The notes beneath the pieces were generated by a model that saw only the letters and a program-made list of their open reading frames with translations, was not told the origin of the DNA and did not search any database. A program made the position numbers and the translations under genes. 64,000 nucleotides of DNA from Pseudomonadota bacterium (GTDB taxonomy: Bacteria; Pseudomonadota; Gammaproteobacteria; Ga0077536), in contig JAYYZW010000014.1 of the NCBI GenBank assembly GCA_036339995.1, positions 6,153-70,152 of the forward strand, in the 5' to 3' direction. Positions 102 to 17,188 of the stretch are shown piece after piece. The first letter of the stretch is position 1, and every line of letters starts with the position of its first letter.

Positions 102-2411
102 ATGATCGCACGTCTGTTCGACATGCTCATCGAGCGCCCGCGACGCATTATCGCTGTCGCTTTCCTGTTGGCTTTGGTCGGGCTCGTTCTCCTGTTCGAA
201 TGGCCGAGCCTCAATCTCGCTCTCGAAGTCGATCCGTCCGTGCGCGCCTTGTTGCCGCATCAGGGTGTCGAACTCGAGATTTTTGAGGCTGTTCGCGATC
301 GATACTCAAGCGACGATCTCCTCCTCGTCGCATGGGTCGCCGATGACCTGTTCACGCCGACGCGACTCGCGGCGCTCAAGCGCCTGACGCGCCGGGTAGA
401 ACGCATGCCCGGCGTCGAGCATGTGGAAAGCCTTGCGACGGCGGTCCGTACGCACGTGTATGAAGACTATACGGAGGTGGGCGCTTACCTAGGCGAGGTT
501 CCGGAGACCGAAGCTGAGGCGCTGGAGGTGCGCGACGCGGTGTTGGATAACCCGCTTTACGCGGGCTACCTGGTCTCACGGGACGGCCGTGGGGCGATGA
601 TCGCCGTCCGCTTCGACCGCGGCCTCTCGGCCAGGACACTGATCGATATCGTCGCGAACATCGCCGCGGCCTCGCGCGAAGAAGCGAGCAACGTGGATCA
701 GTTCCTTTCCGGGCCCTTGTTCATTCGCCTCGAAATAAGCCGCTTGTTGCTACGCGATCTTTATCACGTGATGCCGCTTGCCATCGGCGTAACGCTGATC
801 GTTGTCGCTATCGGTTTCCGTCATGTGCGCGGTGTTGTGTTGCCATTCCTATCGAATGCAATCGCGCTGATTCTGACCTTGGCGATGTTCGTGGCTTCCG
901 GCCACACACTCAACTATGTCACAGTGATTCTGCCTCCGACCGTTTACGTGGTCGGCTTCGCCTATGCAATTCACGTGGTCAGTGACTTTGATCGGCACTT
1001 TGGGGCGGGGCTCGACCGCGCCGCCGCGACGCGGGCGGCTCTTGGCGATGTTGCAGGACCCGTCACACTCACCGCCGTTACCACGGCGCTCGGCTTCGCT
1101 TCACTTACGCTCAGCGATATCGATTCCATCCGTCTGTTCGGCGCGTATTCAAGCCTCGGCACGATATTGGCGTGGTTGGCCGCACTCATCGTCGTCCCGG
1201 CCGGCCTGGTACTCATGCCCGGGCGGCGTCGCGCGAACGCAGTCCGCCGCGCTGATCTTCTTGGCCCTTGGCTCGCGCAACTCGCTGAACGGCGTGGACG
1301 CGTATTCCTGGCGTGCGGGCTGTTGTTGATCGGACTCTCTCTCATGGGTGCCACACGAATCACTGTGAGTACGGATTACCTGGCGAATTTTCCTGCAGGG
1401 AGCGAGCTGCGTCGCAATTTCAACCGCATGAGCACGGTCTTCGCAGGCTCCGTACCGTTACAGATCGTACTGGAGAGCGACACGATCGATGCTTTCAAAA
1501 CGCCGCACGCGCTACGCGCTGTGGACCAACTCAAGGACTGGTTGCTCAAGCAGCCGGAAATCGGTGGCGTTTACACCCTGCTCGACTATATAGGCGTTCT
1601 CGAGCGCGCCCTTGCACCCGAGTTGGTTGATGACGACCCGGTGCCCGACTCGGCAGGTCTTGCCAACCACCTGCTCTTGCTCGGTGGCGGCGAGGACGTG
1701 CGACGCTTTGCCGACCCGGAGTTCATGAGCACGCTCCTGCAGGTGCGCGCCCGGGTCGCGGCAAGCGCGGATCTAAATGCATTGGTTGACCGGATAGATA
1801 CGCGTTTGCGGGAGCTACCCCCTGACTTGCAGGGCTACGTGACCGGCAGCTCATACCTGATTGCGCGTACCCTCGACGAGGTCACCCGCGGCCAGGTCTT
1901 GAGCCTGAGCGCCGCGTTGGTGCCGATCTTTATTGTGCTGGTCGCGATGTTTCGTTCACTCAGGATCGCCGCCCTCGCGCTCATTCCCAACGTCCTGCCG
2001 ATCGTGGCGTTCTTCGGTATCCTGGGCTGGAGCGGCATCACGCTCAACCTGACCACGAGCCTCGTCGCCTCCGTGGTGCTCGGCATCGCGGTCGACGACA
2101 GCATCCACTTTTTCGCACGCCTGCGCGAAACCGCGCGCCATGCGAGCTCCGAGCGCGACGCCGTAGGGGTGGCGCTCGCTGCGGTCGTTCGCCCGGTGAG
2201 TTTCACGACCGCGGGACTCGCGCTTGGTTTTATCACCTTGATCGTCGGTGAGCTCCGCAGCCAGGCCGAATTTGGATTGCTCGCGGCGATTACGCTTGTC
2301 ATTGCGTGGTTGCTCGATCTCACCTTTACACCGGCGCTCGCGCGGCGCTACGGCTTAGCGCGGGTCACGGCAGCAGCCGATCGCAAGTTTACGCGCCACA
2401 AGCCGCGCTAG
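102..2411 (+). CDS. RND-superfamily / MMPL-type membrane exporter
   Basis: 769-aa ORF. It has two clusters of hydrophobic helices (about residues 210-380 and 600-750), each preceded by a large soluble loop, as in MMPL/HpnN-like RND exporters. Confidence 0.7.
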   Translation: MIARLFDMLIERPRRIIAVAFLLALVGLVLLFEWPSLNLALEVDPSVRALLPHQGVELEIFEAVRDRYSSDDLLLVAWVADDLFTPTRLAALKRLTRRVERMPGVEHVESLATAVRTHVYEDYTEVGAYLGEVPETEAEALEVRDAVLDNPLYAGYLVSRDGRGAMIAVRFDRGLSARTLIDIVANIAAASREEASNVDQFLSGPLFIRLEISRLLLRDLYHVMPLAIGVTLIVVAIGFRHVRGVVLPFLSNAIALILTLAMFVASGHTLNYVTVILPPTVYVVGFAYAIHVVSDFDRHFGAGLDRAAATRAALGDVAGPVTLTAVTTALGFASLTLSDIDSIRLFGAYSSLGTILAWLAALIVVPAGLVLMPGRRRANAVRRADLLGPWLAQLAERRGRVFLACGLLLIGLSLMGATRITVSTDYLANFPAGSELRRNFNRMSTVFAGSVPLQIVLESDTIDAFKTPHALRAVDQLKDWLLKQPEIGGVYTLLDYIGVLERALAPELVDDDPVPDSAGLANHLLLLGGGEDVRRFADPEFMSTLLQVRARVAASADLNALVDRIDTRLRELPPDLQGYVTGSSYLIARTLDEVTRGQVLSLSAALVPIFIVLVAMFRSLRIAALALIPNVLPIVAFFGILGWSGITLNLTTSLVASVVLGIAVDDSIHFFARLRETARHASSERDAVGVALAAVVRPVSFTTAGLALGFITLIVGELRSQAEFGLLAAITLVIAWLLDLTFTPALARRYGLARVTAAADRKFTRHKPR

Positions 2412-2805
2412 CCCGCATGCAGCCGAAATCTCCGAGCAGGAGCGCCTCTAAATCGTCCACGACAACACCAAGGAACTGTTTCAGCTTTCCTGTCCATGGG
2501 CCTTGGGTTGGGGTGTCTCAGGGCTGGTTTGCATCGAATGTGCTTCCAAAATGCTGCACAATGCATGAGCCCTGCGCGGGCGTGCTAGCAGTCTGGTCAC
2601 AAACCACCATTCGGAACGGCCGGCACCGTTAACTGCGTTATGGAGGCGCTTTATGAGAAACAAAAAATCTATAACTCATCCGTAACACGCGGTGGGCGGC
2701 CACGTGATGTGAGCGAACGCCTGGAGCATTCTGGCTCTAAGTCTTGTAGAAAAACTGATACTCGCGCGGACTTGCAGCGCGCTGGAAATAGAGGGAGACG
2801 CGATC

Positions 2806-7704: not shown

Positions 7705-8178
7705 CTATCCTGTTTCTAGCAAGCTTTGGAGCATCCGCGCGTTCTTTTCGTGGATCTGCATCCGCTGGGTCAAAAGATCCGCACTGGGCTCGTCTCCCGC
7801 CTGTTCGATGACGGGGAAGACGCTGCGCGCGGTACGCACAACGGCTTCCTGCCGGGACACGAGCCGACGGATCATTTCCGTCGCACCTGGCTCGTCGTCT
7901 TCCTCGGTGATCGAGGTCAGATCCGCAAAATCACGATAAAAACCGGGCGCCCGATGCCCAAGCGCGCGAATACGCTCGGCAATCTGATCGACCGCGAGGG
8001 CCAGCTCCGTGTAATGCGTTTCGAACAGTACGTGTAAGGCCGTGAACTGGGGGCCCGTCACGTTCCAATGGTAGTTGTGCGTCTTGAGATAAAAGGTGTA
8101 GCTGTCTGCGAGCAGCCGGGACAAGCCCGCAGCGATGGCCGCGCGTTTCTCGGCGGGTATTCCAATATCGATATCCAT
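7705..8178 (-). CDS. dps: Dps (DNA starvation/stationary-phase protection, ferritin-like)
   Basis: 157 aa. YTFYLKTHNYHWNVTGPQFTALHVLFETHY...DQIAERIRALG. Confidence 0.9.
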   Translation of the reverse strand: MDIDIGIPAEKRAAIAAGLSRLLADSYTFYLKTHNYHWNVTGPQFTALHVLFETHYTELALAVDQIAERIRALGHRAPGFYRDFADLTSITEEDDEPGATEMIRRLVSRQEAVVRTARSVFPVIEQAGDEPSADLLTQRMQIHEKNARMLQSLLETG

Positions 8179-8282: not shown

Positions 8283-11200
8283 TCAGACCGCGGAAGCAGT
8301 GTGTTCACCGGCCCCTTTTCCGCCGGAGCGCAAACGGCGGCTGAGGTCGAACGTCAAGGTCAGGAGCGCCGGCATGAAAGTGATCGTGACCAAGGTTGAA
8401 AACAAAATACCGAACAGCACGATGGCGCCGAGTCCGCGGTAAAGCTCGGTGCCGGCGCCCGGGTTGAGGACCAGCGGAGACAAGCCGATCACCGTCGTGA
8501 CCATGGACATCATAATCGGCCGCAGCCGCGAGCGCGTCGCTTCTATCACTGCCTCGCGAATATCCATCCGGCCCTGCTTCAGGTTTCTGACGGCGCGCTC
8601 GACCAGCAGGATCGGATTGTTGACGACCGTGCCGATCAAAACCAGAAAGCCCAGCATCGTGATCACGTCTAAAGGCTGCTGTATGACCGCTAGACCAAAG
8701 CGGCCCATTTCCTGACCCACCACGTTCATCAGCCACAACCCGACAATACCCCCGCTGATCCCGATAGGGACGGATGCCAATATCAGCAGGGGGTATCCCC
8801 AATGAGAAAAGATCGCGACGAGAAGCAGGTAGGAGATAAGGACTGCGATGATGAAATTCCCGCTCAGGGCTTCTCGCGTTGCTCTCAACCGATCGTTTGC
8901 CCCGCTGATATCCATTGACACGCTCGGCGCGATCTCGCCGGATTCCTGCAGATGCCGAATGAGTTCGCGTTCGACTCGCTCAACACCGACCTCGAGTGGG
9001 ATTTCCCTCGGTGGAATAATGGACAGCGTGATGGTGCGACGCCCGTCGACGCGGCGAATGGTTTCCGTATTCACAGTTTCGGTCACTTTCGCGATGGCGT
9101 CGAGCGGAACCACGCCGCCATTCGGCGAGAAGAGCAGCAGGTTTTCGATGTCTTCCGGCCCTTCGATCGCGCCCCGGGTCGAATAAATAAACATGTCGAT
9201 CTTATCGTCACCGAGGAAGAATTCATCGACGAAAGCACCGTCGGAAAACGCCCAGATAGCGTAGCCTAGATCGTCGGTTTCGATACCGAGTTCGGCAGCG
9301 CGCTCCCAATCCGGTTTGATTTCGATCATGGGCTGTCCCATCGTTAAACTCGACGGCTGCGGTCGGACCTGCGGATTGACGAAGATCTCCCGCGACCTCG
9401 CGAAAGCACGCGCGCCGGCTTCGAACAGGGGCGCCAGCTCGGCACCGCTGATGTCGAGATTAATGCTCCGCGTACCGCCCAGGTTGCTCGCGAAAATGGA
9501 ACCGCGCGACGCGAACGAGATGACGCCGGGAACCTCACGAAAACGCGCCGTCACTGCTTTGACCAGGTCGTCGGTCTGCACACGATCGGTGGCCTCCGGG
9601 ATCAGCATTACCATACCGGCATAGGCATAGCTGATGACAAAATTGAGCGCCGGAACTTCGGCTTTGCCCACATCGAAAACAGCCGGGTCCTGGCCGACAA
9701 AGGGAACGAAATAGTCGTTCAATTGGCCCAGAATGTCGTCCATGACCTCAATGTTGTAACCCGGCGGTGAAAACATGAAAGCGAAGATCTTCTGCTCCTC
9801 GCCCTCGGGCAGGTATTCGGCCTTGGGCGTCAGGAAACCGATAATGCCCGCTGATACCGCGAGTACGACGCCGATCAACACGACAGCCCGTATCGACCCC
9901 GCGACTAGCCAGCGTACAAAGGCGACCACCGTTTCGCCGACATGCGCGCCGGTTGTTTGAATACTTGAGAGCAATCCCGCGGCTCGACTCCGCCGGGGAT
10001 TCACCCAGCGGCTCATGGCCGCCGGGACCAGCGTGACCGCCACCACCATCGACATCAGAATTGACGCCGAAATAGCAATCGCGATGTCGGAATAGAGCTG
10101 CCCCGCTTCCTCTTCGATGAAGATCACCGGCAGAAAGACGAGCACCGTGGTCATCGTCGAGGCAAGTATCGCGGGCCACACTTCGCGTACACCGGTGATT
10201 GCCGCCTCCACCCGCGACTTGCCTTCCGCAAGATGGCGGTAGATGTTCTCCAGAACGACAATGCTGTTGTCCAGCGTCATCCCGATCGCGAAAGCAACGC
10301 CCGCGAGCGAAATGACGTTGATCGTTCGCCCCGCCAACATCAGCCCGAGAAACGCTACCACGGTGCAAATGGGTATACCGACCGCGCCGATCGCCGTCGC
10401 CGCCGCGGAACGCAGAAACAGGAAAAGCACGACGACGGCAAAACTGGCGCCGATCAGGAGATTGCGCCCTACCACCCACACCGCGTCCTTGACGTACTGG
10501 ACATCTTCGCTGGTGAGTTCCATCTGCAGTCCCCGCGAACTCAAGACGGTCCTGTTGAGGTCGGCGACTTCGTCCATTACCCCCTCCAACACCTCGACCA
10601 CGTTCGCACCGATCATGCGGCGAACGCCGATCGTGATGTTCGGACGCCCGTTGGCGTAGGACACGTTCCTGACTTCGAAGCCCCCCATCGCCGCGTACCC
10701 CACCTCGCGCAGGCGCACCGAAACATCACCGCGCCGGGCGATGATCAAGTCTTCGATGGACTCTACCGTGTCGAACCGGCCGACGGTACGAACGATGTAG
10801 CGCCGCTTGCCCGCATCCAGATCTCCGCCCGAAACGTCGCGATTGCGGCCGCGAATGGCATTGCGCAACTCCCGCACGCTGATGCGCCGATCGGCAAGTT
10901 TGATCGGATCGACGTAGATCTTTACCTGGCGTTCAGTACCCCCCCAGACTTCGGCCTCCGACACGCCCGTGACCCGCTCTATCTGCGCCGCCACGTAATC
11001 CTGTACGAAATCACGCATGAGGTGGACGTCCACGTTCATCGGGTTTCCCGGCAGAGGCGTCACCCGGAAGAACATGAACGGATTATTGGAGTAGGAACTC
11101 GTGATGATTCGCGGTTCGTCTACGTTCTCGGGATAGGATGGAACCTGGGTTAAGGCATTGTTAACCCGGATCAGAATCTCGTTGATATCGGCACCGTGTG

Positions 11201-11480
11201 AAAATTCGAGTTCGATTCGTGCCTGGCCCATTCGTGCCTCGGAGATCATCCGTTCGAGGCCAATGATGTTTCGCAGGTAATCCTCCTGCTCGATGATGAT
11301 TTCCTTTTCGATATCCTGTGGTGTCGCACCCGGCCAGGTCGTGCGTACCCTGACCGTACGTACGTCCAGATCCGGGATCATCTGCTTGGGTATGCGTGAG
11401 ATCGATGTCAGCCCGAACAGGCAGATGATCAGAATGACAACCGTCATGACGATCGGCTTGCGGACTGCAAACTCGAACAT
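8283..11480 (-). CDS. RND efflux pump, inner-membrane permease (AcrB/AcrD/AcrF family)
   Basis: 1065 aa. N-terminus FAVRKPIVMTVVILIICLFGLTSISRIP, 12-TM/2-large-loop layout, adjacent adaptor gene. Confidence 0.95.
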   Translation of the reverse strand: MFEFAVRKPIVMTVVILIICLFGLTSISRIPKQMIPDLDVRTVRVRTTWPGATPQDIEKEIIIEQEDYLRNIIGLERMISEARMGQARIELEFSHGADINEILIRVNNALTQVPSYPENVDEPRIITSSYSNNPFMFFRVTPLPGNPMNVDVHLMRDFVQDYVAAQIERVTGVSEAEVWGGTERQVKIYVDPIKLADRRISVRELRNAIRGRNRDVSGGDLDAGKRRYIVRTVGRFDTVESIEDLIIARRGDVSVRLREVGYAAMGGFEVRNVSYANGRPNITIGVRRMIGANVVEVLEGVMDEVADLNRTVLSSRGLQMELTSEDVQYVKDAVWVVGRNLLIGASFAVVVLFLFLRSAAATAIGAVGIPICTVVAFLGLMLAGRTINVISLAGVAFAIGMTLDNSIVVLENIYRHLAEGKSRVEAAITGVREVWPAILASTMTTVLVFLPVIFIEEEAGQLYSDIAIAISASILMSMVVAVTLVPAAMSRWVNPRRSRAAGLLSSIQTTGAHVGETVVAFVRWLVAGSIRAVVLIGVVLAVSAGIIGFLTPKAEYLPEGEEQKIFAFMFSPPGYNIEVMDDILGQLNDYFVPFVGQDPAVFDVGKAEVPALNFVISYAYAGMVMLIPEATDRVQTDDLVKAVTARFREVPGVISFASRGSIFASNLGGTRSINLDISGAELAPLFEAGARAFARSREIFVNPQVRPQPSSLTMGQPMIEIKPDWERAAELGIETDDLGYAIWAFSDGAFVDEFFLGDDKIDMFIYSTRGAIEGPEDIENLLLFSPNGGVVPLDAIAKVTETVNTETIRRVDGRRTITLSIIPPREIPLEVGVERVERELIRHLQESGEIAPSVSMDISGANDRLRATREALSGNFIIAVLISYLLLVAIFSHWGYPLLILASVPIGISGGIVGLWLMNVVGQEMGRFGLAVIQQPLDVITMLGFLVLIGTVVNNPILLVERAVRNLKQGRMDIREAVIEATRSRLRPIMMSMVTTVIGLSPLVLNPGAGTELYRGLGAIVLFGILFSTLVTITFMPALLTLTFDLSRRLRSGGKGAGEHTASAV

Positions 11481-11510
11481 GACGAAATCAGGCCGCCCGG
11501 AAATTGCTTG

Positions 11511-12608
11511 TCATATGTCTTGCTCGCGCTCTTCGGCGACGAGGACAGATTGGCCTGGCCTCAGTATCTCGTTGCCGCGAACGACCACTTGTTGACCGGG
11601 ACTGACGTCACCGTGCACGATTTCGATGTGATCTCGATAGGAACGGCCGGTCTCGATTCGCTGCGGAACGGCCTTGGTGACACCGTCTTCGACGATGATG
11701 ACCCAGACCTTAGCAGTGCCATCGGGTTTCCGCACCACCGCATCGCGCGGTAGCAACAGTGCGGACGCCTGGCCGCGCGCGCCGATGTACAGACTGACGC
11801 GCGCCGACATCCCGGGCGCCAACCGGTTCTCATCATTGGGAATATCGATCCATATTCTGAACGTTCTCGAGGCAAGATCACTGATGGGAATTTTTCTCGC
11901 CACCTTCGCCTCGAATGTCCGACCGGGCATGGCGTCAAAGCGAATGGTCACGTCGGTGTCGATTTGGATACCCGCGTAATAGAACTGCGGCACGGACACC
12001 TCCAATCGCAACAACTTGATGTCTACGAGCTCGGCGAGAGCCGTGTTGGTTTCAACCCACTCCCCTTGCTCAACCAGCTTGCGGCTCACGACGGCATCGA
12101 AGGGCGCGTGAACAACGTGACGCCGCAGTAATTCCCGCGCCCTCTCAAATTGCGCTTTGGCCTGTTTAACCGTAGCGGCGTCGATATCTATCTGAGCCTT
12201 GGCGGCAGAGACCGTCGTGTCGGCGACATTGCGGGTCTCCTGCAACTCAAGCAGTTCACGATATCGCCGTTCGGACTCAAGCCTGCGTGCGCGGGCTTCT
12301 TCGAGCCGCGCATTTGCCGCATCGACGTCAATTCGCGCAAGCGCTTGATCTAACAGCAAGACGACTGCACCGCGCTCGATGCGATCACCGTCATCGACCC
12401 GTATCTCTGCAACAAGGCCGTCGATTTCAGTCGAAAGGCGTGAAGTCCTGTGTGCGATGAGGCTTCCGTTAAGCGTAACTTCCTCACGTATTTCGGCTGT
12501 CTGTACGGTCGAGACGCCGACCGGTACGGGTGCCTCAGCCATCAAACCCAGCGGCGCAAAACAAATACCGCCGCGCAGCAAGGCACCGACGATACGTGCC
12601 GGTATCAA
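11511..12608 (-). CDS. RND efflux periplasmic adaptor (HlyD/MFP family)
   Basis: 365 aa. Signal/anchor segment, a coiled-coil stretch (ARLEEARARRLESERRYRELLELQE...), beta-barrel C-terminus. Sits directly upstream of the RND permease. Confidence 0.9.
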   Translation of the reverse strand: MIPARIVGALLRGGICFAPLGLMAEAPVPVGVSTVQTAEIREEVTLNGSLIAHRTSRLSTEIDGLVAEIRVDDGDRIERGAVVLLLDQALARIDVDAANARLEEARARRLESERRYRELLELQETRNVADTTVSAAKAQIDIDAATVKQAKAQFERARELLRRHVVHAPFDAVVSRKLVEQGEWVETNTALAELVDIKLLRLEVSVPQFYYAGIQIDTDVTIRFDAMPGRTFEAKVARKIPISDLASRTFRIWIDIPNDENRLAPGMSARVSLYIGARGQASALLLPRDAVVRKPDGTAKVWVIIVEDGVTKAVPQRIETGRSYRDHIEIVHGDVSPGQQVVVRGNEILRPGQSVLVAEEREQDI

Positions 12609-13039: not shown

Positions 13040-13801
13040 TTAGTTTCGACGGGTGCCGAGTATTACCGCCCGTTTGAGCATCCTTGCGAAAACCGTACTG
13101 CCCGCCTCGATTAAGGCGGAAACGTCGTCGCGGCCCAGCTCGTTCGCTACGATTTGGTAAATTTCGAACCCGGTCCTCCCCCCATTCTCGATGATGAGTT
13201 CAAGAAGACGCGCCGATGCGCTGCTCAAATCCAGGAAACCATAGAGGTTGTCCAAATCGCGAAACACAGCGATCCGCGTCGCCGCGGGAGGTGGTTCAAT
13301 TGACTGATACTCTGGACCAATGGTATGGACCGGAAATCGATAGGTCACGATCTTGAGGATGGGATTGGGTACCGGGATTCCCTTGATCAGGTCGCCGCTG
13401 CGATCGATCCCCGTCAGATCGACCTGCCGCTCGTCCGCGCCTATCAAGGTTTCAAGCCAATCGAAATGAGCGAGTTCGCCTAGGAAGGGCGGATCAGCCG
13501 GATCCTCACGCTCGCATTCGAGATACTCGAGAAACTCCAGCGGCAAATCGACGAAGGCCGACGCCCGTGACGCATGGAGAATAAGATAATCGCGCACCAG
13601 AGCGTTCCAGCGCTCGTCATCGAAGATCTCACGCACTCTCGGGAAGTTGTCCTTCATGAAACCTTCGACGTTCGCGAATATCGCGCGACGATAGATAGCC
13701 ATGCGGCGATCCTCGTGACCTAGCGGAGGAGCCTCCTGGTCGGGATCGCGCAGGTATCGGGTAAACAAGCGCTGCAGGCGAATGAACTCCGGTTCCATCA
13801 C
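13040..13801 (-). CDS. DUF2063-family protein (MNIO partner, BufC/HvfC-like)
   Basis: 253 aa. RLQRLFTRYLRDPD...MAIYRRAIFANVEGFMKDNFPRVREIF...LGELAHFDWLE matches the DUF2063 pattern. Downstream of the DUF692 gene in the same orientation. Confidence 0.8.
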   Translation of the reverse strand: MMEPEFIRLQRLFTRYLRDPDQEAPPLGHEDRRMAIYRRAIFANVEGFMKDNFPRVREIFDDERWNALVRDYLILHASRASAFVDLPLEFLEYLECEREDPADPPFLGELAHFDWLETLIGADERQVDLTGIDRSGDLIKGIPVPNPILKIVTYRFPVHTIGPEYQSIEPPPAATRIAVFRDLDNLYGFLDLSSASARLLELIIENGGRTGFEIYQIVANELGRDDVSALIEAGSTVFARMLKRAVILGTRRN

Positions 13802-13819: not shown

Positions 13820-13972
13820 CCTCTGAATAAGTCATGGTAGGTCCGATTTGTTCGTGCACCGTGCAGAACAAGGTACGAATCGCAGGCCATAGCGGGGACT
13901 ATTGGCAAGCTTCGTAACGCAAGGCTCCACGATTTCATGGGCAAGGCAGATGTGCCATGACTTATTCAGAGG
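13820..13972. repeat. MITE-like element: perfect 18-bp terminal inverted repeats around a 117-bp core
   Basis: cctctgaataagtcatgg at 13820..13837 and its exact reverse complement ccatgacttattcagagg at 13955..13972. The left-end 22-mer gaacctctgaataagtcatggt recurs at 16533..16554. Confidence 0.8.
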
Positions 13973-13976
13973 CCCT

Positions 13977-14885
13977 TTAGGCAGCGGCGTCCCCGACACT
14001 TTGAGCGTATCGCGATTGCAATGCTTTGATTCTGGCCACTTCAGGCATCATCTCGCCGAGCGGTGGGATATTCTCGTCTCGCTCCAACAATGTCGGAAAT
14101 ACGCCAAACTCCTGGTACGCGAAATCCAATAAGGACCACACGGGATCGATGATGGGCTCGCCATGTGTATCGACGATGAGGTCCTCATCCTCATTGGTAT
14201 GCCCGGCAATGTGCGCATAGGCGATGCGCTGCGCGGGAATCTTCGAGATGAAAGACTTCGCGTCATAGCGATGATTCACGCTGTTGACGTAAACGTTGTT
14301 CACGTCGAACAGAAGCTGGCAGTCGGCCTCCTCGAGTACGGCCTTGATGAAGGTAATTTCATCTAATTCCGTCGACAAGGTCAGATAATACGACGCGTTT
14401 TCCACCGCGATCGTCCGCTCCAGCACATCCTGGACCTGCCGAATTCTCGCGGCGAGGTGGCGCACGGCTTCTTCCGTGAATGGAATTGGAAGAAGCTCGT
14501 ATAGCTGACCACTCTCCGCGCAAAAAGTCAGGTGATCGCCGTAGATGAGAACCTTGTGACGGCCCAGGAATTTTTTTACGCGGGCGAGGTATTCGAGATC
14601 CAGGGGATCCGGACCGCCAAGATTGAGCAGTAATCCGTGGCAGGCGAGGGGCCGTTCACAGGTAATGCGCTCAAATGCCTCGCCGAGGCGGCCGCCTACA
14701 CCGATCCAATTCTCGGGAGCGACTTCAAGGAATTCGATTTCGTCTGGGATGTGGTCCTGCAGCGGACCCATGTGGGTCCGCCGCAGACCAAGACCGGCGC
14801 CTGCTACGGCGAAATTCCGTTGCACCGGTTGAGTTTGGACAATAATGTCCGGGTCGTTTATTTCTTGAGGTGCTTCATCGAGCAC
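13977..14885 (-). CDS. DUF692 / multinuclear non-heme iron oxidase (MNIO; MbnB/BufB/HvfB-like)
   Basis: 302 aa. AGAGLGLRR...IEFLEVAPENW...HGLLLNLGG...GDHLTF...LLPIPFTEEAV...AVENASYY...LLFDVNNVYVNSVNH...HIAGH...VDTHGEPIIDPVW...PTLLERD matches the DUF692 (UPF0276) TIM-barrel pattern. The start is either ATG 14885 (28-nt overlap with the upstream ORF) or GTG 14825. Confidence 0.9.
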   Translation of the reverse strand: MLDEAPQEINDPDIIVQTQPVQRNFAVAGAGLGLRRTHMGPLQDHIPDEIEFLEVAPENWIGVGGRLGEAFERITCERPLACHGLLLNLGGPDPLDLEYLARVKKFLGRHKVLIYGDHLTFCAESGQLYELLPIPFTEEAVRHLAARIRQVQDVLERTIAVENASYYLTLSTELDEITFIKAVLEEADCQLLFDVNNVYVNSVNHRYDAKSFISKIPAQRIAYAHIAGHTNEDEDLIVDTHGEPIIDPVWSLLDFAYQEFGVFPTLLERDENIPPLGEMMPEVARIKALQSRYAQSVGDAAA

Positions 14886-15169
14886 ATATCACCGGCGAAG
14901 GTCCCGCAAACACCGGGATCTTTCATGCCTGTCGCGAGCTTCCCGCCAGCGTATTTAGCCTTCTGGTCACCACCGTAAGTGAAACCGGTTTCGTCATTGA
15001 TCATGACTTCGTTGCCCTGCATATCCATGGCTTCGCCGGCAACGGTGACGCCTTCACCGAATTCCACCATCTGGAAAGGGTTGTCGGCCGCGTTAGCGGA
15101 CACCGCTAATGCCAGAATGACACTGGAACCAAGCGCAGCAGCAACAGGCTTCAGATTGTTTTTCTTCAT
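14858..15169 (-). CDS. Small secreted Met-rich protein; candidate RiPP precursor of the MNIO
   Basis: 103 aa. Sec-type signal MKKNNLKPVAAALGSSVILALAVSANA|ADNP. The 76-aa mature part has 7 Met and ends in CGTFAGDMCSMKHLKK. Strong SD GAGGAGGAAGG upstream of the ATG. Abuts or overlaps the DUF692 gene. Confidence 0.7.
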   Translation of the reverse strand: MKKNNLKPVAAALGSSVILALAVSANAADNPFQMVEFGEGVTVAGEAMDMQGNEVMINDETGFTYGGDQKAKYAGGKLATGMKDPGVCGTFAGDMCSMKHLKK

Positions 15170-15347
15170 GATTGACCTTCCTCCTCAGAGATTTTTAACG
15201 TTGTACAACACCCCCGGGGACCGGCCGCGACACGCCCACGCATCCATTCGAGCAGAGTCCGGCAGCTATCCGGCCGGGGCTAGGGATGTTAGCGACCGAG
15301 GTAATATAAGTCTAGGCAGGCGGGATCCCGACGGATGCGGTCGGTGA

Positions 15348-15384
15348 ACAAAAAAACCCCGCCGAGGCAAACCGCCGCGGGGTT
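15348..15384 (-). terminator. Intrinsic-terminator-like hairpin plus U-run, oriented for the minus strand
   Basis: aaccccgc (15355..15362) pairs with gcggggtt (15377..15384), with extra inner pairs. A run of 7 A on the plus strand (15350..15356) gives 7 U after the stem on the minus strand. Confidence 0.55.
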
Positions 15385-15493: not shown

Positions 15494-16531
15494 ATGCAAT
15501 CTAACGCATTGATTACATTTATTTTATTGAGCTTTCCCGCGCTCGCTGGAGGTGCGGACACGGGCGTCGATGCCTTCCGCCGCGGGGACTTTGACGCGGC
15601 CCAGCGGTACTTCACGGCAAAGGCCGAGCGCGGCGACCGGATAGCGCAGAACAATCTGGGCGTCATGTATCTGAAAGGGCGTGGCGTCGAGGTCGATTTC
15701 GTCAAGGCTAGAGCCTATTTCAAAGCCGCCGCCAACCAAGCGCTGGGGGGCGCGATGTTCAATCTGGGCATCATGCATCTTCGGGGCTACGGCAGCAAAA
15801 TCAATCTCCGCGAGGCGGTCACCTGGTTTCGCAAAAGTGCTGTGCGGGGCGATCGCGAAGCGCAATTCTTCCTCGGGTTGATGTATTTCAAAGGCCAAGG
15901 GACCCTGCCCGACCCTGAGAAGGCGCGTCAGTGGTTTCAGAAATCCTCTGAGGCAGGCTTAGCGGCGGCACAGTTCAATCTCGCCATGATTATTCTAAAG
16001 GCAGGCGATGGCGCCGCCAACGAGGAAGAGGCGCTGCGATGGCTTGATGCGGCAGCCGAGCAGGGTCACGAACAAGCCAAGCTGCATATCGCCAAGGTGC
16101 ATCTCGCACACGTGGACGACCCTGATAGAGCGGCTCGCGCCGCAATCGTCTTGCACGAACTTGCCGACGTCGGCGAACCCGAAGCGCAGATGCAATACGG
16201 CTTGATGCATACCTTCGGGTACGGCGTACCGCTCGATCACGAAGAAGGCCGGTTCTGGTTGCGGCAATCGGCCCTTCAGGGACTGACGGCAGCCCAAATC
16301 AACCTCGGGGCGATCTATGCCGACGGTCTGGGCACGGATCCTGACCTCGTCAAAGCCTATGCCTGGCTGACCCTCGGCGCGGAAAACAATCGAGCGGCGA
16401 ACCAGGCTTTGGAGCAAGTCTCTCAACGGATCGAGCGGGCAGACCGTGAGCTAGCCGAAGCCATGATCACCGAACTGAGGCGCAAGACATCGAAGGACCC
16501 CATTCCGAAGGCCGGCGAAACCGCGCACTGA
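15494..16531 (+). CDS. Sel1-repeat (SLR/TPR-like) protein with signal peptide
   Basis: 345 aa. Repeated A(Q/E)xNLGxMYxxGxGVxxDxxKAxxWFxKAA units, e.g. AQNNLGVMYLKGRGVEVDFVKARAYFKAAA and AQFFLGLMYFKGQGTLPDPEKARQWFQKSS. Confidence 0.9.
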   Translation: MQSNALITFILLSFPALAGGADTGVDAFRRGDFDAAQRYFTAKAERGDRIAQNNLGVMYLKGRGVEVDFVKARAYFKAAANQALGGAMFNLGIMHLRGYGSKINLREAVTWFRKSAVRGDREAQFFLGLMYFKGQGTLPDPEKARQWFQKSSEAGLAAAQFNLAMIILKAGDGAANEEEALRWLDAAAEQGHEQAKLHIAKVHLAHVDDPDRAARAAIVLHELADVGEPEAQMQYGLMHTFGYGVPLDHEEGRFWLRQSALQGLTAAQINLGAIYADGLGTDPDLVKAYAWLTLGAENNRAANQALEQVSQRIERADRELAEAMITELRRKTSKDPIPKAGETAH

Positions 16532-16532
16532 T

Positions 16533-16554
16533 GAACCTCTGAATAAGTCATGGT
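16533..16554. repeat. Second copy of the MITE left-end 22-mer
   Basis: gaacctctgaataagtcatggt is identical to 13818..13839 and starts 2 nt after the Sel1 gene stop. A degenerate inverted match (ttcatgtgaggttcaga) lies near 16836..16852. Confidence 0.7.
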
Positions 16555-16903: not shown

Positions 16904-17188
16904 ATGTTCACGATTAAATACCTAGCCCGAGTTTGTCGCCGGCCGGCCAGGGCTCTCGCATTGCTTGCCGCCTTGAATCTGTGGCAACCAGGCTTGATGT
17001 CCGCGGAAAATGGAACCACGCCTGCCACATCACCGACGGAGCAATCGCAAAGTACGAACGAATCGAAAGCCCAAGACACCAAGTGCTTTCATGGTTGCCT
17101 CAGGTGGGGCAAGTTTTGCAATGTCGATCCGCGCGGAGTCTACAAGTGCCGCCGGCGTTGCGAGAAATTCGGCGAAATTTGCGAGTGA
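16904..17188 (+). CDS. Small secreted Cys-rich protein with a tandem C-x3-C-x6-C motif
   Basis: 94 aa. Signal-like RRPARALALLAALNLWQPGLMSA, a Thr/Ser/Gln-rich linker, then CFHGCLRWGKFC-x9-CRRRCEKFGEIC. Its stop overlaps the GTG start of the next gene (GTGA). Confidence 0.5.
   Translation: MFTIKYLARVCRRPARALALLAALNLWQPGLMSAENGTTPATSPTEQSQSTNESKAQDTKCFHGCLRWGKFCNVDPRGVYKCRRRCEKFGEICE

Follow-up and report, generated by a model that had tools for sequence, protein, structure and literature searches.

A small open reading frame (ORF) on the minus strand of contig JAYYZW010000014.1 (assembly GCA_036339995.1, a gammaproteobacterial Pseudomonadota genome) probably encodes the cognate precursor peptide of a three-gene cluster, in which it is followed by genes for an HvfB-type MNIO (DUF692) enzyme and an HvfC-type partner. 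To judge from its sequence, the cluster would belong to the class of Sec-exported, 5-thiooxazole-bearing, copper-binding peptides that comprises the bufferins, oxazolin and the captophorins. The new element, as read from the sequence, is a C-terminal module of approximately 55 residues that stands in place of the EGKCG repeats of related precursors. The DNA analysed, hereafter the window, is 64,000 nucleotides long, and the features of the cluster within it are as follows.

14858..15169, minus strand: precursor gene (the 'A' peptide of an A-B-C MNIO cluster), 103 amino acids plus stop codon, recognised from the ORF and its translation, its homologues and purifying selection
15089..15169, minus strand: Sec-type signal peptide, residues 1-27 (MKKNNLKPVAAALGSS...ANA, followed by A), read from the sequence and lying inside the stretch aligned by hhalign
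15029..15088, minus strand: 'N region', residues 28-47 (ADNPFQMVEFGEGVTVAGEA), sharing homology with the N region or leader in FonA and in precursors of the HvfA family and MmrA type
14861..15028, minus strand: C-terminal module, residues 48-103, with core F.YGGD....Y..GK..TG.KDPxVCG and tail C-x7-C-S-(M/V/I)-x-(H/Y)
14906..14908, minus strand: Cys88 codon, V-C-G context, invariant across the entire module family
14882..14884, minus strand: Cys96 codon, C-S context, invariant in the close family
13977..14825 (longest frame from 14885), minus strand: HvfB-family MNIO (DUF692), matching NF003818, PF05114 and PDB 3BWW (E 3e-72)
13040..13801, minus strand: HvfC-family partner, DUF2063 plus an RRE-type NGO1945_C domain, matching NF050145, PF09836 and PF22106

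The precursor gene and its conservation

The translation of the precursor ORF reads MKKNNLKPVAAALGSSVILALAVSANA up to the predicted signal peptidase cut and ADNPF...CGTFAGDMCSMKHLKK after it. The signal peptide has lysines at positions 2, 3 and 7 in its n-region, then a hydrophobic core, and A-N-A at -3/-1. A recount of the predicted mature part gives 76 residues, among them 13 Gly, 11 Asp plus Glu against 7 Lys, no Arg, 7 Met, 1 His and 2 Cys. The two cysteines, C88 and C96 (C61 and C69 in mature numbering), are separated by seven residues and both fall within the last 16. A first-pass annotation of this DNA, made from the letters alone, had described a Sec signal in the first 27 residues, an acidic, Gly-rich mature part of this length and composition, and a C-x7-C tail, and on each of these points the ORF agrees with it.

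A protein search recovered 192 clusters of precursor homologues, 102-104 amino acids in length and 72-95% identical to the query, none of which carries a Pfam domain; wherever a source name is given, it is 'hypothetical protein'. A scan of GTDB species genomes found 77 loci, all in uncultured metagenome-assembled genomes (MAGs) and nearly all labelled Gammaproteobacteria or Pseudomonadota, with the best match to the precursor (98%) on CAXXLL010000003.1. The family is restricted to uncultured aquatic Gammaproteobacteria, and the public databases carry no annotation for it.

Residue conservation was counted over the window ORF and 120 listed homologue clusters, that is, 121 sequences. P31, F32, M50, C88, G89 and C96 are invariant among them, and N30 (118/121), M34 (120/121) and S97 (120/121) are nearly so. 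Of the 121 proteins, 118 retain H100, and all have exactly two cysteines. Across 22 gap-free genes the ratio of nonsynonymous to synonymous polymorphism (pN/pS) was 0.23 (range 0.19-0.30), falling to 0.19 in the C-terminal part, with pS at approximately 0.64 and synonymous sites near saturation; against the locus whose precursor is 98% identical (L004), nonsynonymous divergence (dN) was 0.008 and synonymous divergence (dS) 0.164. The precursor ORF is a real gene under purifying selection. That it might be a chance reading frame or a mis-called gene has next to no probability and is refuted by conservation: length-conserved homologues in hundreds of contigs, the synonymous bias, and a conserved Shine-Dalgarno sequence and promoter-like motif all contradict it.

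The methionines behave differently from the cysteines that the first-pass annotation had grouped with them as a ligand signature. M34, M50 and M98 (108/121) are conserved and M48, M56, M82 and M95 variable, so that only three of the seven are kept, and in the wider module family H100 is replaced by Tyr and M98 by Val or Ile. Because the family has a median of four methionines and a maximum of seven, the latter being the window ORF, 'Met-rich' is a trait of the window sequence and not of the family.

A leader shared with EGKCG precursors

The N-terminal 47 residues of the precursor place it among known MNIO substrates. In an hhalign comparison of the precursor profile with a profile of EGKCG-type precursors that included FonA, residues 1-47 aligned with 98.8% probability (E 8.8e-17). 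The matching proteins include the canonical EGKCG-repeat precursors P0178, P0191, P0196, P0204 and P0206 and the experimentally validated FonA (...AQASVFQASDLGAGYMVA...; sequence from the PMC13097082 supplement). Common to both sides are the signal-peptide pattern KKxxLKPxAxALG(S/T) and an N region of the form NPF.M.E(L/F)..G(Y)..VA, which reads NPFQMVEFG..VA in the window and SVFQASDLGAGYMVA in FonA. In HvfA a region of '20 N-terminal residues' is thought optimal for recognition by HvfC (PMC11252979), and in MmrA the conserved leader has been modelled on the RRE of the partner protein (PMC12538549). Because residues 1-47 are homologous to the leaders of validated EGKCG substrates, the putative recognition part of the precursor is shared with the EGKCG precursors and is not new. 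In this respect the proposal in the first-pass annotation of new recognition determinants was not supported.

Profile positions 22-58, which run from the last part of the signal peptide through the N region into the beginning of the module, were also matched by the giant repeat proteins P0132, P0137, P0139, P0146 and P0185 (repeats SAADNxWxSVTYGNGLFVAV..GTGNRVMTSPDGITWT). The likeness suggests that the N region could be a beta-hairpin-forming sequence, with homology doubtful. As relatives of the precursor the giant proteins were set aside, the resemblance to the N region being at the level of a motif.

A C-terminal module in several architectures

The core of the precursor is unlike the EGKCG repeats, as the first-pass annotation had stated. 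The NCBIfam model NF050137 'KCGExKCG_twice' (cut-off 19.5 bits) matches FonA (71 bits), other canonical precursors (P0196, P0204) and hybrid proteins (P0127, L062), but not the window ORF, which had no Pfam or NCBIfam match at E<=1. A PDB sequence search with the module profile found no relative (best E 0.24). The module family comprises 316 clusters with the consensus DMxGN...F.YGGD...Y..GK..TG.KDPxVCG(T/S)F....CS.xH; the only source name among them is 'hypothetical protein', and none has a Pfam domain.

Cys96, invariant as it is in the close family, is missing from the distant members P0130 and P0166, and it stands in C-G context in L077 and P0141. To judge from the sequences, Cys88 is most likely the modified residue. 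FonBC requires a small residue after the cysteine and modified an NVCGG variant once (PMC13097082), so that the V-C-G motif is compatible with modification of Cys88.

A modular layout emerged from a profile search of 1.8 billion representatives together with the collected loci. In the window type, signal peptide, N region and module stand beside MNIO and HvfC. In a second arrangement, EGKCG repeats are inserted between N region and module, again beside MNIO and HvfC (P0127, L058, L062, L065, L068 and L071); the hybrids of L058 and L062 are preceded by a canonical EGKCG precursor encoded on its own. In a third, the signal peptide is joined to the module without an N region, directly upstream of MNIO and HvfC, giving proteins of 85 amino acids (L081-83, L088, L089) or 82 (L090); the latter comes after a canonical EGKCG precursor of 126 amino acids. 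The GTDB loci, with 53 linked copies and none lacking the N region, had made the N region appear obligatory for MNIO linkage, and the leaderless 85- and 82-residue forms overturned this. The N region is strongly, not absolutely, associated with MNIO linkage, and the module has a tie of its own to MNIO clusters.

The MNIO, its start codon and its specificity position

The MNIO scores 397.5 bits on the NCBIfam HvfB equivalog model NF003818 (cut-off 360), also matches Pfam PF05114, and stays below the cut-offs of the models for BufB (263.3 versus 310), MbnB (48.9 versus 325), ApyH and ChrH. Its HvfC partner scores 210 bits on NF050145 (cut-off 142). MNIO and HvfC follow the precursor directly downstream in 48 of 49 close GTDB loci, which bears out the association with a DUF692 gene on which the first-pass annotation had built, and ENA and Logan contigs independently show the same order. 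Within the operon no other conserved small Cys-containing ORF was found; the sole one sits in an insertion that is absent from L004.

The first-pass annotation had further noted that the longest MNIO frame (13977..14885) overlaps the precursor ORF by 28 nt and had taken this to indicate coupling. The overlap is there in the longest frame. Homologous MNIOs, however, begin approximately eight residues ahead of the GAGLGLRR motif (FonB MSLHPTIAGAGLGLRR, L081 MFPDTPVFGAGLGLRR, L090 MFEKKYSVNGAGLGLRR, and also L088), and the equivalent start in the window is a GTG at 14825, 32 nt past the precursor stop. The distance from precursor stop to MNIO start is 2-113 nt in most loci, and an overlapping frame is possible in only 9 of approximately 50. 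Because homologous starts fit GTG 14825 and few loci permit an overlap, the 28-nt overlap is probably not real, although the operon organisation is clear; translational coupling through it was given up in favour of the GTG start.

In PMC13097082, FonB Arg15, Arg16 and Phe250 (beside the catalytic Asp249) are reported to govern which residues are tolerated around the modified cysteine; Phe250 is conserved in 'Lys-Cys' MNIOs, and Cys-Lys MNIOs are reported to have Asp. The DF pair falls at 251-252 of the machine-read FonB sequence, an offset of two residues from that paper's numbering. The motif around it is LLERDF in FonB, HvfB and PDB 3BWW and LLERDE in the window MNIO. All of the approximately 50 MNIOs that have the module as their only neighbouring Cys peptide show ERD followed by E (in most), L, V or I, never F, and all six whose cluster also encodes EGKCG motifs show ERDF; the Arg-Arg pair and the Asp are retained in every MNIO compared. 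A residue other than Phe would be expected of an enzyme freed from accommodating the lysine of EGKCG. Because the specificity residue differs exactly where EGKCG substrates are absent, this co-variation supports the module as the putative working substrate in the window clade.

The same residues bear on an account in which the module is indeed an MNIO substrate and the outcome is unlike that of bufferin or oxazolin: modification of Cys88 only, another chemistry or a cross-link over C-x7-C, or a role with another metal or with none. Such an outcome would suit the invariance of Cys88 in a family where Cys96 can be missing, a specificity residue that is neither the Phe of Lys-Cys MNIOs nor the Asp of Cys-Lys MNIOs, the absence of copper-linked genes nearby, and the many different reactions within the MNIO superfamily (PMC12452194). 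Set against it are an enzyme above the HvfB equivalog cut-off that retains the Arg-Arg and Asp of FonB, and the statement in PMC13097082 that all MNIO-PME1 pairs characterised to date install 5-thiooxazoles on cysteine. We regard this outcome as unlikely.

Comparison with characterised systems

The closest known systems are those of HvfA, FonA and MmrA (Buf_EGKCG/oxazolin; the 'Lys-Cys' captophorins oxazolin, fontiphorin and bulbicupramide). Beyond the homologous N region, they share with the window cluster a Sec signal on the precursor, the gene order A-B-C, in which B is an MNIO of the HvfB family and C its HvfC (PME1) partner, and the Cys-Gly dyad at the precursor's first cysteine, and natural fusions join their EGKCG repeats to the window-type module. 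They differ in having 6 to 58 cysteines rather than 2, and cores made of repeats, whereas the window precursor has no EGKCG or KCGExKCG repeat and a conserved, non-repetitive core of 55 residues. The window MNIO has Glu where FonB has Phe250, with the same Arg-Arg and Asp, and so lacks the residue that marks 'Lys-Cys' MNIOs. DoxX is frequent, not universal, in HvfA-type clusters and absent from the window cluster. Captophorin clusters are defined by MNIO, PME1 (DUF2063 plus RRE) and a Cys-containing precursor (PMC13097082), all of which the window cluster has, although 'Cys-rich' describes its two-cysteine peptide only loosely.

In bufferin 1 (BufA1) of Caulobacter vibrioides, two thiooxazoles form one copper site with a KD of approximately 6e-15 M for Cu2+ (PMC11626156). 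BufA1 is likewise a small Sec-exported precursor that needs an MNIO and a DUF2063 partner, and from the genes alone the same stoichiometry, two modifiable cysteines, would be expected for the window precursor. The two differ in family, BufA1 being a DUF2282 protein whereas the window ORF has no Pfam match and its MNIO falls under the BufB cut-off, and in build: a disulfide joins two of the four cysteines of BufA1, for which a fold is predicted with confidence (PMC11626156), and the window peptide has two cysteines and no predicted fold.

Among MNIO genes of the mega-cluster, hundreds are directly preceded by unclassified signal-peptide ORFs with 1-18 cysteines (Antoine et al. 2025, PMC12452194). 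The window family fits this description, but the survey gives it no name, and none of its motifs occurs in the supplements to PMC12452194 and PMC13097082. The 'CxxxxC' family of PMC12452194 has C-x4-C against the invariant C-x7-C seen here, and the window cluster has neither DoxX nor Lactamase_B_2. Such precursors are thus anticipated by PMC12452194, and the module family and its architectures were not found described in the MNIO literature searched.

The window cluster is also distinct from that of methanobactin. In methanobactin, likewise a peptide modified by an MNIO, one Cu(I) is bound by two heterocycle/sulfur pairs that derive from cysteines. The window enzyme is far below the MbnB cut-off, its partner is of HvfC type with no MbnC, and the window precursor, unlike MbnA, is Sec-exported, approximately three times longer and unrelated in sequence.

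Taken with these precedents, the cluster suggests the following course. The operon would be transcribed from a conserved sigma-70-like promoter with a leader of approximately 116 nt. In the cytoplasm an HvfB-HvfC heterodimer would engage the precursor through its N-terminal 47 residues, and probably through the module as well. By family membership, the iron enzyme is predicted to oxidise Cys88 (V-C-G), and probably Cys96 (C-S), to 5-thiooxazoles, with a loss of 4 Da each and, as in captophorins (PMC13097082), absorbance at approximately 305 nm. Sec export and signal peptidase cleavage after A-N-A27 would leave a periplasmic peptide of 76 residues, largely unstructured. By speculative analogy with bufferin 1, the two heterocycles, eight residues apart, might then form one copper site, and the peptide would be a minimal, single-site member of the class.

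Evidence weighed against the assignment

Several observations weigh against reading the ORF as a bufferin-like precursor. The sequences show that the gene is real, that the cluster is conserved, that the leader is homologous, how the module is distributed and how the enzyme co-varies; the modification, its chemistry, the number of cysteines modified, export and metal binding are all things that we infer. Serine after the modified cysteine, the context of Cys96, is not documented as accepted in the available part of PMC13097082. AlphaFold2 was run twice, on 33 and on 50 sequences, and returned mean predicted local distance difference test (pLDDT) scores of 44.7 and 48.2, that is, no confident structure on which a metal site could be modelled. 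No copper-linked gene (DoxX, CopA, SigF/NrsF) lies near the window precursor, and no DoxX gene was found among the ORFs and Pfam-annotated neighbours of the window, L001-L003 and L081-L090. The resistance-nodulation-division (RND) pump encoded directly downstream of HvfC exceeds no NCBIfam subfamily cut-off (multidrug, 517 versus 1250 bits; CusA/CzcA, 328 versus 701). The F-to-E difference at the specificity position separates two clades and could represent a single historical event. At one locus (L040, 6428..6571) an intact precursor with its N region is accompanied by an MNIO reduced to a fragment of 48 amino acids with an in-frame stop; no HvfC was found at this locus, which represents a cluster in decay or else a fault of assembly. 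Finally, module copies without an adjacent MNIO form a fourth arrangement, represented by 15 loci without and 8 with an N region. Because the cysteines are conserved in these unlinked copies, they may have a role independent of the MNIO.

The unlinked copies occupy varied surroundings. Some are versions with a lipoprotein signal that adjoin the nqr operon, some are proteins of 80 amino acids encoded between a MacAB-like exporter and a cation diffusion facilitator (CDF) transporter with an ArsR-type regulator, and one has ribosomal and gatCAB genes around it. A linked copy coexists with one or two unlinked ones in at least nine MAGs.

These 23 loci and L040, where the precursor has outlasted its MNIO, are what would be expected if the module were an autonomous periplasmic mini-protein, with C-x7-C as a disulfide or a thiolate metal site and without modification. 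The MNIO/HvfC pair would then serve another substrate, or the module would escort the true product; in the hybrid clusters and those of L090 type the module need not be the target, since they also encode a canonical EGKCG substrate. However, in approximately 50 loci of the window clade and the 85-residue clade an intact, conserved MNIO/HvfC pair has no Cys-containing peptide beside it other than the module protein, and it is there that the specificity position has changed. An autonomous module would also leave the leader homology to validated substrates unexplained, and in the MAGs that hold both kinds of copy the unlinked ones could be modified in trans. We judge the autonomous mini-protein improbable, and a cognate precursor of the MNIO/HvfC pair remains the reading that we prefer.

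A more tentative proposal, which we put forward with considerable doubt, is that the module is a mobile unit with an independent function, repeatedly taken up by MNIO systems, in the four forms described above. If determinants of recognition lie in the module itself, several dispersed proteins, lipoproteins among them, could be modified in trans by one MNIO/HvfC pair; if the unlinked copies work unmodified, they would constitute a natural series showing what a thiooxazole adds to a pre-existing Cys-based site. Were the proposal true, either outcome would blur the boundary between the precursor of a peptide synthesised on ribosomes and then modified post-translationally (RiPP) and an ordinary periplasmic protein.

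Regulatory sequence and an insertion in the operon

Upstream of the precursor, and between the two genes that follow it, we recorded these features.

15286..15314, minus strand: promoter-like TAGACT-N17-TAACAT, 116 nt upstream of the ATG, a consensus match only
15200..15209, minus strand: 10-nt palindrome GTTGTACAAC in the 5' untranslated region (UTR), approximately 30 nt before the ATG
15176..15186, minus strand: strong Shine-Dalgarno sequence GAGGAGGAAGG, nearly invariant in related loci
13820..13972, no strand assigned: insertion of 153 bp resembling a miniature inverted-repeat transposable element (MITE), located after the MNIO stop and before the HvfC start and bounded by terminal inverted repeats of 18 nt that match perfectly (CCTCTGAATAAGTCATGG)

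Of 45 related loci, 37 have the promoter-like motif, in the form TAGACT/TGGACT-N17-18-TA(A/C)CAT, at a distance of 108-136 nt before the ATG. The palindrome, which may be an operator to judge from its sequence, is either kept in related loci or has AAAACGTTTT in its place, and the 5' UTR also holds conserved GATGGATGC and TTGTACAA motifs. A riboswitch or attenuator in this UTR of approximately 116 nt was considered and rejected, RNAalifold giving -1.5 kcal/mol and no consensus structure. An Rfam scan of the whole window returned two tRNAs and nothing else. At 15356..15368 (minus strand), farther upstream than the conserved promoter, there is a G+C hairpin with a T7 tract that resembles a terminator and occurs also in L003 and L004; it is on the precursor strand, yet there is no upstream gene there to terminate.

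The MITE-like element is absent from L004, where the gap between MNIO and HvfC is approximately 14 nt, against 175 nt in the window. A third copy of its 18-nt repeat follows the stop codon of the neighbouring Sel1-repeat gene (16536..16553). The element is not part of the system, though it lies inside the operon, and it could form a strong hairpin in the operon mRNA.

Neighbouring genes

The cluster is flanked by the following genes.

15494..16531, plus strand: divergent periplasmic protein with six Sel1 repeats, upstream of the precursor
8283..12608, minus strand: RND adaptor and RND permease of 1065 amino acids, directly downstream of HvfC, with its own promoter-like site

The Sel1-repeat gene stands upstream of the precursor in 45 of 46 close loci with enough flank, and its product resembles MerG below threshold (96 bits versus a cut-off of 350). 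Because the wider region (TrmB, HAD hydrolase) is syntenic as well, the Sel1 linkage may reflect shared ancestry only. One database protein of 132 amino acids (P0134) joins the first 41 precursor residues to Sel1-repeat sequence and is probably a chimera of the two divergent neighbours, arising in assembly or gene calling.

Just past the Sel1 gene, 16904..17188 (plus strand) encodes a secreted mini-protein of 94 amino acids with six cysteines, which belongs to no family in Pfam or NCBIfam. By tblastn, 31 related loci conserve its C-terminal half, C.HGC.RWG..CNVDPRGVYKC.R.CEKFGEICE. The gene also adjoins the MNIO-less module genes L052 and L057 and is directly divergent from the precursor in L049; its product may be another small partner for the module protein in the periplasm, or its presence may reflect synteny alone.

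The RND genes adjoin the cluster also in L002, L004, L013 and L015, and in L054 they directly follow an MNIO-less module gene. A role for the module as a CusF-like chaperone of the pump was considered and rejected: neither pump nor adaptor exceeds the cut-off of a heavy-metal model, the RND genes have their own promoter-like site, and the adjacency holds in some loci only. Just beyond this operon lie a cytochrome P450 gene (6402..7637, plus strand) and a Dps-like gene (7705..8178, minus strand), with no visible connection to the precursor cluster.

In L088, a gene for a MerR-family regulator of 316 amino acids (1602..2552) lies two genes upstream of the 85-residue module/MNIO/HvfC cluster; none was seen in the window. 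The protein is a possible metal-responsive regulator in its lineage.

Implications for MNIO substrates

Clusters of MNIO and PME1 are among the most widespread RiPP-type systems of Proteobacteria. Their characterised substrates, in the literature searched, are DUF2282 proteins, Cys-Lys (BUF_6/12Cys) peptides and proteins with EGKCG repeats. To these the present family would add a substrate type that combines a shared leader with a different, non-repetitive, two-cysteine core, and it is accompanied by natural chimeras, leaderless forms, unlinked paralogues and a changed specificity residue. Together these would offer handles on the parts that leader and core play in recognition, on the selectivity exerted by the position of FonB residue 250, and on whether a single pair of thiooxazoles suffices for a periplasmic copper site.

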